Assembly: GCA_938017895.1 (NCBI GenBank)
Contig: CALIJI010000010.1
Location: forward strand, 15,045 to 79,044
Direction of reading: 5' to 3'
Source: an uncultured bacterium
GTDB lineage: Bacteria > Patescibacteriota > Saccharimonadia > Saccharimonadales > Saccharimonadaceae
DNA length: 64,000 nt
The translations under genes were made by a program, and so were the position numbers. Positions 1,660-63,479 of the stretch are shown one piece after another. The notes under the pieces are model-generated. The model did not search any database. It saw nothing but the letters and a program-made list of their open reading frames with translations, and had not been told where the DNA came from. Numbering within the stretch: position 1 is the first letter of the stretch; every line of letters begins with the position of its first letter.

Positions 1660-3015
1660 TTACAAGTTAATTTTTGATTTTTTTCGATAAATGACTACAC
1701 CACTAGTTAATGCAATAAGAACAGCCGAGGCTAGTATAATCCAACCGAATACATCATTGTTATCTGATTTTTTAAATCCAGTTTGCGGAGTTTTTGGAGC
1801 TGCCTCACTGCGAGGAGCTTCAGCTGGCTTTTCAGTTTTAACTTCTTTTGCTGGTTCAGTTGGTTTTTGTTTAATAGCTTCAAGATCAGCTTGAGTTAAG
1901 ATACCCTTGATTGGCACTTCATGCACACCATTGCCTTGGAATATTACCGATCCGTCTTTTGCAGTTACCGTAACTTTATATTTGATATTCTTGAGTTTGC
2001 CATTAACTAGGTCAATATTAGCTTGAGCTGCTGGGTCAGGGTTTAGCTCTATTGGAAAATCAAACCCAGAAGAAGTCTTCAAATTCTGTTGTTCTAAAAC
2101 CTTAACATTACCGGCCAAGCCTTCACTATCAAAGCCAAATTTAAAACCAGTTCGCGGAGTTTCCATGATTAGCTTATCTGCATTAACCCTATTACTATCA
2201 TCAAAGATAAAATTCGATCCAGTATTTCGCTCAGCCTTATATTTACTAAATAGAACTGGCGAATCTTTCTCTAGTTCTATTTTGATATTAGCATCTTTCC
2301 AATTGCTTTTTGTCTCTATACCAAAGACTAAGTTTCCCCTTTTAGTATCAGAATTAAAACTAGAACTACTGCGCCATATTGTATCACTATATGAAAGTCT
2401 TTTAGTGTAACCATTAACTTTAATATGCTTGCTAAATACTTCTCGGTCATTTACTGCAGCAAAAGTACGAACATCATAATTGGGTGAAGAATCTACTAAT
2501 GGGTAACTAGCATGAATATTAGAAAAAATAAAACCTATTTTATTAACATTCTGACCTGCCACATCCTGATTAAAGGTAACCTTCCATTTACTCCAAGGCA
2601 CAGCATCTTCAACTTTATAAGCATCAAACTGGGCAATACCTGCGGCATCAGTTTTATATGAAGAATAAGTATGGCGACCCTTATTGGACTCAACAACTTT
2701 GGCAGTTGTTACAGTTTTGCCATTAGCTTTAATGTCGAAGTCTCGAATTTCACCCATACCAGCGATACCCTTTTGGTAAATAAAGAAGTAGTCACCAGGA
2801 TTGACTGTTTCCTGAATATCAAAGTCCATTCCAAAACTATACCAGCGATCATCGACCGCAACCTTATCTACTTTAGGGTCAGCTTTAAGCTGAATATTAG
2901 GTGAGGTTAAAATCTTTGTGAGCTGTTTTGGTGTATCAGCAAAAGCTGGTCGCACCAAAGCTCCACCAGTAATCGCAATCGCCAAAATTGCTGCGATCTT
3001 AATTTTATATTTCAT
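1660..3015 (-). CDS. Secreted surface protein with a sortase-like C-terminal sorting signal (PQTG, TM helix, basic tail)
   Basis: N-terminal signal peptide MKYKIKIAAILAIAITGGALVRPAFA. C-terminus KTPQTGFKK..WIILASAVLIALTSGVVIYRKKSK. Strong SD (AAAAGGAG) upstream. Confidence 0.5.
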   Translation of the reverse strand: MKYKIKIAAILAIAITGGALVRPAFADTPKQLTKILTSPNIQLKADPKVDKVAVDDRWYSFGMDFDIQETVNPGDYFFIYQKGIAGMGEIRDFDIKANGKTVTTAKVVESNKGRHTYSSYKTDAAGIAQFDAYKVEDAVPWSKWKVTFNQDVAGQNVNKIGFIFSNIHASYPLVDSSPNYDVRTFAAVNDREVFSKHIKVNGYTKRLSYSDTIWRSSSSFNSDTKRGNLVFGIETKSNWKDANIKIELEKDSPVLFSKYKAERNTGSNFIFDDSNRVNADKLIMETPRTGFKFGFDSEGLAGNVKVLEQQNLKTSSGFDFPIELNPDPAAQANIDLVNGKLKNIKYKVTVTAKDGSVIFQGNGVHEVPIKGILTQADLEAIKQKPTEPAKEVKTEKPAEAPRSEAAPKTPQTGFKKSDNNDVFGWIILASAVLIALTSGVVIYRKKSKINL

Positions 3016-3065: not shown

Positions 3066-3096
3066 ATTCTACCCCCCCCCCTGTATATTTTGTCAA
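3066..3096 (-). promoter_or_regulatory. Candidate promoter TTGACA-N9-G10-TAGAAT (19-bp spacer containing a G10 homopolymer) for the 1660-3015 surface protein gene
   Basis: On the minus strand there is a perfect -35 TTGACA (3091-3096), a G10 tract (C10 on the plus strand, 3072-3081) and a -10 TAGAAT (3066-3071), about 50 nt upstream of the SD/ATG. Confidence 0.55.
3072..3081. repeat. Homopolymeric C10/G10 tract
   Basis: Ten consecutive C residues in a ~35% GC genome, lying in a divergent intergenic region. Confidence 0.9.
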
Positions 3097-46471: not shown

Positions 46472-46553
46472 AATATTTTGTTTTCTTTTTTGTCTTGTTT
46501 AATCTATGCTTCGTATTATAGCATAAGCTAGTTTAATTGTCAATGCTCAATTC

Positions 46554-61654: not shown

Positions 61655-61767
61655 TAGTCTTTAAGACTCCTTCCTTAATTGTATTTCTTTGAACATAGTC
61701 AAAATTAACCTGCTCAATAGATTGATTATTATTTTAACAGATTATAAAAGATTTTTCAAGCATTAAA

Positions 61768-61805
61768 ACTAAAAAATAGCCCTTGTTTTTTGAAGGCTAT
61801 TTTTA
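61768..61805 (-). terminator. Intrinsic terminator after the 61815-62306 gene
   Basis: 10-bp stem AAAAATAGCC/GGCTATTTTT. Confidence 0.5.
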
Positions 61806-61814
61806 ATATGTAAC

Positions 61815-62306
61815 CTATTTCATATTTTCGTAGTAGTCTATAATCTGCCGACTCAAACCTTTTCGGAATTTCAGATACTCTGCATTATCAGTATTCCCAG
61901 TTGACCTATTTCCTCTATTAAAAACGGTTAGTACTAAAGGAGTTTCCCCCCTATCAGTTGGTTGGCCGATAGTAAGACCTTTATATGGGTTAAAATCTTC
62001 ATCCTTATCACTCATATCAATAAGATCTTCTAGTTGTGCTTTACCTTCTTTGTTAGTTTTAACCAACCCCATAAAGCCAGCGTAAGTAACAATATAATTG
62101 CCATTATCTAGTTTTAGCATAGATGAAATTGGTTCTTCTCTAGTATTTTTAGCATAGCTTCCCTCATTAATAAGCCTTTGCTGTAAAGTGGCTCTATAGG
62201 CATCGGCTGTAGCAACAAAACTTCTTTCCTCATAGCCATTCCTAAGATCATCGACAAGATTATCGAGGCTTGTTCCTGTTTTATCGTACGTTAAGTTATT
62301 AAACAC
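61815..62306 (-). CDS. Hypothetical protein
   Basis: 163-aa ORF whose track start is a GTG. An out-of-frame 23-aa mini-ORF with a good SD overlaps it upstream, so the start is ambiguous. Confidence 0.45.
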   Translation of the reverse strand: MFNNLTYDKTGTSLDNLVDDLRNGYEERSFVATADAYRATLQQRLINEGSYAKNTREEPISSMLKLDNGNYIVTYAGFMGLVKTNKEGKAQLEDLIDMSDKDEDFNPYKGLTIGQPTDRGETPLVLTVFNRGNRSTGNTDNAEYLKFRKGLSRQIIDYYENMK

Positions 62307-62398
62307 ATCATTCTTTTTTCTAAATACTCTGGCTGAGTATTGAACGAATTAAAATTCTTCATATTTATCCTTTAAAAAATATTAAAAATCGCATTTTG

Positions 62399-62429
62399 AT
62401 TATACCCCCCCCCCGAACAGTTTTGTCAA
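62399..62429 (-). promoter_or_regulatory. Candidate promoter TTGACA-N9-G10-TATAAT (19-bp spacer containing a G10 homopolymer)
   Basis: On the minus strand there is a perfect -35 (62424-62429), a G10 tract (C10 at 62405-62414) and a perfect -10 TATAAT (62399-62404). Confidence 0.55.
62405..62414. repeat. Homopolymeric C10/G10 tract
   Basis: Ten consecutive C residues. Confidence 0.9.
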
Positions 62430-62491
62430 GTTTTAGCTTTAGAGTTTTTTGAAGGTTGAATTTTTAAATTTTTCATCGTAAAATAGAATTA

Positions 62492-62647
62492 ATGACTACT
62501 GCAATAAACAATAACATACCAAAAACTTTATTAGCAGAATTTTCGAAAATCTTTCATAAGCCTAAAATTCTAGTCGGAAAGCCTCAAGAATCCGTAATTT
62601 ATAACTACTTTAATTTTATAAAAAAAGGCGCTAAAAGTTTAGTATGA
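62492..62647 (+). CDS. Small 51-aa ORF translationally coupled to the downstream HExxH gene
   Basis: Its stop TGA overlaps the next ATG as ATGA. No homology is recognizable, and it is below the ORF-track cutoff. Confidence 0.3.
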   Translation: MTTAINNNIPKTLLAEFSKIFHKPKILVGKPQESVIYNYFNFIKKGAKSLV

Positions 62648-63096
62648 ATATAGATTTTGTTAAAACTTTGCGCAAAGATTTTCCGCAATTTATCTTTAAA
62701 GAAAATGATGATTTTCATTGGTCGAAACAAAAAAACACAATTTTCTTCAATCTAGAATCTACCAATTTTCATCTATTAATTCTTCACGAGCTAGCTCATG
62801 CGCTACTAGGCCATGAAACTTTTAATCTTGATATAGAGTTACTCCAAATGGAGATGGAAGCTTGGGAATTTGCTAAGAATAACCTTGCTACACAATACGG
62901 AATCTGCTTTGACTCAAATATATCCGAACGAAAGCTCGACACTTACCGAGACTGGATCCATAAACGCAGCTTATGCCCAAATTGTACAGTGAACGGATTT
63001 CAAAAAAGCGATCTATCTTATAAATGTCCCGCATGTGGAACAACTTGGACTGTAAATGACTCCCGATTCAAAAGTCTACGACGAGTCAAAAAATAG
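62644..63096 (+). CDS. HExxH zinc-metallopeptidase-like protein (ImmA/IrrE, DUF955-like) with a C-terminal zinc ribbon
   Basis: Motif ILHELAHALLGHE and a C-terminal CPNC..CPAC. Confidence 0.55.
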   Translation: MNIDFVKTLRKDFPQFIFKENDDFHWSKQKNTIFFNLESTNFHLLILHELAHALLGHETFNLDIELLQMEMEAWEFAKNNLATQYGICFDSNISERKLDTYRDWIHKRSLCPNCTVNGFQKSDLSYKCPACGTTWTVNDSRFKSLRRVKK

Positions 63097-63450: not shown

Positions 63451-63479
63451 ATTATAGCACAACTTATGCTTTTTGTCAA
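63451..63479 (-). promoter_or_regulatory. Perfect consensus promoter TTGACA-17-TATAAT for the KGG stress gene
   Basis: Both hexamers match consensus and the spacer is 17 bp. Confidence 0.65.

Follow-up and report, generated by a model that had tools for sequence, protein, structure and literature searches.

Is a run of ten G residues, lodged between two perfect promoter hexamers on the minus strand at 62429..62399, a genetic switch, and if so, which gene does it turn on and off? The question was addressed in a window of 64 kb, by which we mean the whole stretch of DNA analysed here. Exact-protein matches assign the locus to contigs of human oral metagenomes, and core genes (SecA, PriA, RecJ, rpsA and infB) lie around it. 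IF-2 of the window shares about 75% identity with proteins named Candidatus Saccharimonadales or Saccharibacteria, and the window derives from an oral Saccharibacterium (TM7, Patescibacteria), not from a mobile element. Members of the Saccharibacteria live as obligate episymbionts and have very small genomes; the literature searched yielded no report of SSR phase variation among them. Switches with poly-G in a promoter spacer are a class already known, with a textbook mechanism, and the case described here is new within that class. In our judgement the locus is likely to be a hypermutable on/off contingency locus, whose main switch is the poly-G tract in the spacer of a sigma-70-type promoter.

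The poly-G promoter and its tract lengths

The minus strand at 62429..62399 reads TTGACA-aaactgttc-GGGGGGGGGG-TATAAT, exactly as described in the first-pass annotation, with both hexamers perfect and the G10 run within a spacer of 19 bp. The -35 hexamer (62424..62429) is TTGACA or TTGACC across five lineages, and the fixed part of the spacer, aaactgttc (62415..62423), is near-invariant among relatives. The G10 homopolymer (62405..62414), the putative hypermutable element, occurs as G7, G8, G9, G10, G11 and G12 in public assemblies; the -10 hexamer (62399..62404) is TATAAT here and CATAAT in some relatives. A promoter scan restricted to spacers of 16-18 bp does not call this promoter, because its 19-bp spacer lies outside that range. 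Two other perfect TTGACA/TATAAT promoters, with 17-bp spacers, are present in the window (46543..46515 and 63479..63451, both on the minus strand), and the organism therefore uses that consensus. Both have 12/12 consensus positions and a TG extended -10; the one at 63451-63479 precedes a gene for a KGG-repeat stress protein and the one at 46515-46543 precedes a tRNA-Thr/tRNA-Tyr pair. GACAAA was considered as an alternative -35 in the 19-bp state and rejected, with a consensus match at only two of six positions.

The same layout occurs a second time in the window, at 3096..3066 on the minus strand, where TTGACA-aaatataca-G10 (tract at 3081-3072)-TAGAAT, again with a 19-bp spacer, lies upstream of a 451-aa ORF. 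The earlier view that two loci share the layout beyond chance is borne out: runs of G8 or longer in the 64-kb window are confined to these two promoter tracts, while 100 dinucleotide shuffles gave on average 0.21 matches for G8 or longer and none (0/100) reached the observed count. G/C runs of length 5 number 13 in the window, those of length 6 one and those of length 10 two, with none between 6 and 10, and TTGACA-N15-21-TATAAT was found three times against 0.16 expected. A chance origin of the poly-G promoter layout at the two loci is excluded.

Tract-length polymorphism, on which the first-pass annotation had staked its reading, is present at the level of assemblies, with G7-G12 at 62405..62414 and G7-G10 at the twin. 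The sequence TTGAC(A/C)-aaact(g/a)ttc-Gn-(T/C)ATAAT is kept in about 30 assemblies from five lineages, whose proteins are 65-98% identical, and Gn is G7 in five, G8 in one, G9 in one, G10 in 14, G11 in eight and G12 in one of them. Differing tracts precede an identical 163-aa product in L001 and L003 (G10), L002 (G8) and L004 (G12). L004 has no substitution relative to the window in 2.4 kb and differs in the G tract (+2) and by a 1-nt change in an A7 run (62620-62626); L002, with four SNPs in 5 kb, has G8 and the same A7-run indel as L004. Other alleles of the window's species carry G10 (L127 and L128), G11 (L147) or G7 followed by CATAAT (L143 and L144). The sister lineage, with proteins about 77% identical, has G9 once, G10 twice and G11 three times; the L134 allele has G11, the P0013 lineage has TTGACC with G10 (n=3), and the P0014 lineage has G7 (n=3), G10 (n=4) or G11 (n=2) before CATAAT, with the identical protein P0014 throughout.

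The mechanism that we propose is that replication slippage adds or removes G residues in the spacer and that this would alter both the distance and the rotational phasing between TTGACA and TATAAT. G8 would give the optimal 17 bp (ON), G7 and G9, with 16 and 18 bp, would be intermediate, and G10-G12, with 19-21 bp, are predicted to be weak or OFF. The window's promoters, at 19 bp in both loci, are thus probably weak or off. The commonest states are G10-G11 (19-20 bp), and the 17-bp state was seen once at the 182-aa-gene locus; under the simple model the gene would therefore be off in most samples. The assemblies show the architecture and its conservation, the variation in tract length and the frameshift described below; the effect of length on transcription, reversibility, switching within populations, the assignment of ON and OFF states and any benefit to the organism are inferred.

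Could the tract instead be a static spacer element, such as a G at -14 or a protein-binding site, with length differences that come from Illumina or assembler errors? Errors are frequent in homopolymers of ten or more, the poly-G tract is where several contigs start or end, and some of the differences could indeed be homopolymer assembly error. The contigs broken in the tract, like some short variant contigs, may on the other hand hint, indirectly, at length changes within a population. Against a static element, lengths recur in independent samples (in one allele group G7 in three, G10 in four and G11 in two), G10 is common to the window, L001 and L003, and consensus assemblies differ by as much as plus or minus 2-3 bases. 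At the twin locus the lengths even compensate for changes in the fixed part, so that N8+G9 and N9+G8 both give 17 bp. We consider the static element quite improbable, and a tract of variable length remains the preferred reading.

Lineages that share only 65-80% identity in their proteins show hardly any variation in the -35, in the nine fixed bases of the spacer and in about 60 nt upstream, and these 60 nt may, to judge from their conservation, be a regulatory or UP-like region. The near-invariance of 62430-62492 persists where the divergent neighbour gene differs (ROK versus 51-aa and 150-aa genes). Back to back with the poly-G promoter stands a divergent promoter-like site on the plus strand, TTGAAT-17-TAAAAT (62456..62484), for the 51-aa and 150-aa genes. 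That it stands 26 bp away from the G10 promoter's -35 lends some plausibility to the idea that C10 on the plus strand tunes the divergent operon, instead of or besides the minus-strand gene, as in hifA/hifB. The tract, however, is outside the divergent promoter and about 42 bp upstream of its -35, hence its length has no effect on that spacer; moreover, the P0013 and P0014 lineages have a ROK-family neighbour yet keep the poly-G promoter and the 182-aa gene. Tuning of the divergent operon is therefore very improbable, and we continue to assign the tract to the minus-strand gene.

The 150-aa protein (62644-63096, plus strand) has the motif HELAHALLGH (HExxH) and a C-terminal CxxC...CxxC zinc ribbon, and weakly resembles phrog_87, a phage metalloprotease (E = 9e-5), as well as Lit and ImmA-like peptidases (E ~0.01). 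An obligatory link of the 182-aa gene to this neighbour was rejected, a ROK gene being found there in two lineages. The start of the 150-aa HExxH gene is overlapped by the 51-aa ORF (62492..62647), inside which lies the plus-strand A7 run at 62620-62626; A6 in L002 and L004, the sole indel besides the G tract between these and the window, alters the C-terminus and length of the small ORF (49 versus 51 aa).

The gene behind the promoter

Comparison with homologues reveals that the gene downstream of the poly-G promoter occupies 61815..62362 on the minus strand, encodes a protein of about 182 aa, starts at ATG 62362 (GTG in some relatives) and is frameshifted in the window. Full-length homologues have mostly 179-187 aa and all begin MKNFNSFNTQPEYLEKKNDVF.. 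/ MKNFNSFNTQPEYLEKKNDVFNNLTYDK.., whereas the window's frame comprises 17 authentic codons from ATG 62362, is lost at an A6 run, and leaves as its remainder a 163-codon ORF (62306..61815). The A6 run is located in codons 16-18 (GAA AAA AGA; 62314..62319, minus strand), and a run of A7 keeps the frame intact (E K K N D V F): the intact 182-aa allele P0037, found in L127 and L128 and belonging to the same 90% cluster, has GAAAAAAAG where the window has GAAAAAAG. The run is A6 in the window, L001-4, L143/4 and L160-2, A7 in L127, L128 and L134, and A8 in L147, so that out-of-frame (A6), in-frame (A7, 182 aa) and again out-of-frame (A8) states occur among alleles at least 96% identical. By this comparison the window allele is a -1 frameshift, one A having been lost from the A7 run.

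It follows that the leader, described earlier as about 85 nt long, would rather have about 30 nt, since the start of the mini-ORF is the start of the gene, with transcription predicted to begin at about 62392. The poly-G promoter lies 37 nt upstream of ATG 62362, and the Shine-Dalgarno sequence AAAGGA (62368..62373, minus strand; AAGGAG or AAGGAA in relatives) precedes this ATG by 5 nt. The start of the real product, which had been called ambiguous, is thus ATG 62362, as in the homologues. The 23-aa mini-ORF (62362..62291) and the GTG ORF (62306..61815) do exist as the first-pass annotation claimed; its leader-peptide reading fails, as the first 17 residues of the mini-ORF are the N-terminus of the homologues, and the later codons are out of frame. 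Control by a leader peptide, in which the 23-aa ORF in a leader of about 85 nt would couple translation of the GTG 163-aa ORF, could appeal to the good Shine-Dalgarno sequence of the mini-ORF and to its stop 13 nt downstream of GTG 62306, and termination-reinitiation might yield some N-terminally truncated product. However, every full-length homologue has an N-terminus homologous to these 17 residues, one extra A restores the join, a separate leader ORF is present in no homologue, and no Rfam element was found in the leader of the 182-aa gene. Such control is scarcely credible and, judging by the homologues, is refuted as the way in which the locus is built; some reinitiation at GTG 62306, at a low level, may occur. 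Programmed -1 frameshifting was also rejected: AAAAAAG is present, but the zero frame GAA AAA AGA is the wrong register for X XXY YYZ. Relatives with A7 need no ribosomal frameshift for the full-length frame.

In the proposed switch the A6 frameshift would act as a second block besides the 19-bp state of the promoter, and the window genome probably yields no full-length 182-aa product. The A run has only 6-8 residues and is confined to the window's own species and the L134 allele; it is absent from the P0004, P0013 and P0014 lineages, which have the codons GAGAAAGAA, GAAGAAGAG and GAAGTAAAA, so that GAG AAA GAA or GAA GAA GAG replace the run in relatives with the same residues. On these alignments, the A run is a secondary site at the level of the species and the poly-G tract is the conserved element. 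Within the gene, a G6 run (D R G E; 61946..61951, minus strand), the only other G/C run of six or more in the window, is G8 (+2, a frameshift) in L160-L162, three short low-coverage contigs from three samples, which may be assembly bubbles of minor variants.

A terminator-like hairpin with a U run (61772..61804, minus strand; -11.3 kcal/mol, z = -2.55) lies 3' of the gene, which is therefore probably monocistronic; beyond it the promoter scan places a promoter-like site for rpsA (61759..61731, minus strand). It should be noted that the homopolymers make gene callers split or mis-start the gene, giving 163-aa, 217-aa and 124-aa forms; the 217-aa database forms are read-through by the gene caller across the promoter, with ..KLFGG.. 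as translated poly-G.

Searches of the 182-aa protein against Pfam, NCBIfam, PADLOC and PHROGs returned no matches, and neither a signal peptide nor a membrane segment was found in it. A PDB profile search gave weak ankyrin matches only (E = 6e-4), with no stretch passing alone. When 1.8 billion cluster representatives (50% clustering) were searched exhaustively with a profile, nine were found, one of them through a repeat motif that matches He_PIG Ig domains in P0051. Even distant members of the family retain the N-terminal MKxFNSF motif. In members P0004-P0017, P0045, P0049 and P0050, the segment FNPYKG.TIGQPT..G.TPV.LTVFN resembles the core of the He_PIG Ig-like repeat in P0051. As far as can be predicted, the product is a soluble protein of about 182 aa from a tiny lineage-restricted family, with a sequence that appears to diversify between alleles.

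A pN/pS of 0.2-0.3 relative to the sister lineage indicates purifying selection on the coding sequence. Between the window (61815-62306) and L134 (2153-2641), there are 54 non-synonymous and 6.7 synonymous differences (pN/pS 2.2), with 47 of the 61 changes at first and second codon positions, whereas the neighbouring genes (150-aa and KGG) have pN/pS values of 0.05-0.09 in the same strain pair. In this one allele pair the excess of replacements looks like episodic diversifying selection. DGR-type mutagenesis was rejected as its source, the substitutions not being adenine-specific.

Is the gene, then, simply being lost? Decay would mean that the G, A and internal G runs gather inactivating indels with no adaptive reversibility. 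In the window's species the alleles are mostly frameshifted (A6 in at least eight assemblies, A8 in one and A6 with G8 in three, with A7 in only two), pN/pS among its close alleles is 0.3-0.7, a value that comes from few changes, and the modal promoter state is 19-20 bp. On the other hand, the position of the poly-G promoter and its flanks are conserved in five lineages and the ORF is intact in four of them, on dozens of contigs; in alleles with A6 or A8 the 163-codon remainder is free of stop codons and of other disruptions; the A run has both +1 and -1 states around the intact A7; and the comparison with the sister lineage points to purifying selection. We regard decay as unlikely, with room for partial decay in the window's own species, given that lengths predicted to be OFF predominate. 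The states A6/A7/A8 of the coding run, G6/G8 of the internal run and the pN/pS of 2.2 against L134 are hallmarks of a contingency gene.

The twin locus and the same layout in other genomes

The twin promoter precedes a gene for a 451-aa surface-type protein (3015..1660, minus strand) with a signal-like N-terminus and a C-terminus (..TPQTG.., a hydrophobic segment and RKKSK) that resembles a sortase sorting signal. Its match to an NCBIfam LPXTG subfamily is weak (E = 0.097), TPQTG departs from the canonical LPXTG, and its homologues form only four clusters, all more than 83% identical. In relatives the twin tract is G8, A+G7, N8+G9 or N8+G8, corresponding to spacers of 17, 17, 17 and 16 bp, i.e. 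three of the four reach 17 bp by different combinations of fixed part and G run. A Saccharibacterium from sheep gut likewise has a 470-aa protein ending in ..SPDTG.. behind a poly-G promoter (L041:1501-2910, minus strand); no homology was found between this protein and the 451-aa one.

The two loci had also been suspected of being switched in a coordinated manner, and only two independent strains with both loci were available for comparison. The window strain has G10 at both (as does ERZ989726, which shows no difference from the window in the regions compared); in the NODE_133 strain the twin locus has G8, 17 bp, and the 182-aa gene G7 with CATAAT, 16 bp. One strain with both tracts long and one with both short is compatible with common selection or with chance, and no trans-acting mechanism linking the loci is indicated. 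Slipped-strand switching is normally independent at each locus. MutS and MutL were not found among the ten large ORFs of the window that were scanned, three of which had no Pfam match.

A scan of one genome per species for TTGACA-N8-10-G8-N0-4-TANAAT returned at least 120 stretches from many lineages. The matches listed are mostly from host-associated Clostridia, Lachnospiraceae, Bacilli, Mollicutes-like organisms and Treponema, together with two other Saccharibacteria. By habitat and group, the listed matches of this species-representative scan are mostly gut or rumen Firmicutes and Treponema. The layout shared by the two loci is therefore a recurrent common design and not a genome-specific system, so that the dedicated switch of the first-pass annotation cannot be upheld in that sense. 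Among the matches listed, a hydrophobic, signal-peptide-like N-terminus is found in 63% of the first downstream ORFs, whereas control ORFs taken from these loci have one in 24% of cases (Fisher p = 5e-13). The G run directly adjoins the -10 in 96 of the 121 matches listed, which hints at a role of the sequence besides its length and speaks to that extent for a static element. Among the matches listed, total spacers are most often 18-19 or 16 bp long, with a dip at 17 bp; we counted this under-representation of 17 bp across phyla against the proposed switch.

What the locus may mean, and known systems

Taken together, the observations invite a broader reading to which we give somewhat less than even credence: that Saccharibacteria (CPR/Patescibacteria) possess a phasome with at least two conserved poly-G promoter switches, one of which drives a homopolymer-gated, diversifying protein of a novel family without a signal peptide. 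Within it, a G run that abuts the -10 of TTGACA/TAnAAT promoters may be a widespread and under-described switch of host-associated Firmicutes, Treponema, Mollicutes-like organisms and other lineages, with genes for secreted proteins possibly preferred. If this phasome exists, the pattern would be in keeping with a molecule engaged in an arms race, be it against phage, the bacterial host or the human immune system. Cell-to-cell heterogeneity in Saccharibacteria would find an explanation in a conserved stochastic switch, which also bears on how these organisms modulate their contacts with phages, with bacterial hosts and with the human host; the 451-aa surface protein and the diversifying 182-aa protein are flagged as candidate interaction genes.

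As in other promoter-spacer SSRs, the repeat is situated between the -35 and -10, is unusually long for 64 kb of sequence and varies in length between conserved flanks. In the closest precedents, the poly-C tract of fetA and the poly-G tract of porA lie between the -10 and -35, and expression peaks at 17-bp spacing (PMC5320596); phase variation by the porA promoter-spacer poly-G is also discussed elsewhere (PMC7864442). In T. pallidum, tp0126 is optimally expressed when its poly-G gives 17-nt spacing, and the activity of tprL, evident with G8, is close to background when the tract is G10 (PMC7864442). It is because of the 17-bp optimum in these precedents that G8 is predicted to be ON here and the G10 of the window weak or OFF.

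Our locus is like N. meningitidis porA and N. gonorrhoeae/meningitidis fetA in that a homopolymer between the hexamers differs in length between strains. In porA and fetA the spacer, and with it the level of transcription, depends on how long the tract is, an effect which we infer for the present locus. Unlike those of the proteobacterial pathogens, the promoter belongs to a Gram-positive-type ultrasmall episymbiont, and unlike the outer-membrane proteins PorA and FetA, the target is a small protein without a signal peptide, which is atypical among targets of promoter SSRs. The likeness to tp0126 and tprL of T. pallidum extends to the poly-G tract, which is about 7-11 long and lies in or at the promoter, and also to the gene model: the annotated start of a treponemal ORF was revised after its promoter had been located (PMC7864442), which parallels the mis-called start here. 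The treponemal cases, with outer-membrane targets, are supported by fragment-length and reporter evidence, and ours by the comparison of assemblies.

With regard to the coding run, a 5' homopolymer in -1, 0 and +1 states resembles the poly-G tracts of Campylobacter jejuni and the translational phase variation of Neisseria (PMC5320596, PMC6321876), although the classical G/C tracts, of eight or more, exceed a poly-A of 6-8 in both length and mutability. Finally, H. influenzae hifA/hifB, as cited in PMC11868660 (its reference 120), carry a TA repeat in the promoter spacer of a divergent intergenic region. There the repeat is in the overlapping spacers of both divergent promoters, whereas the tract described here is in one of two promoters that stand back to back.
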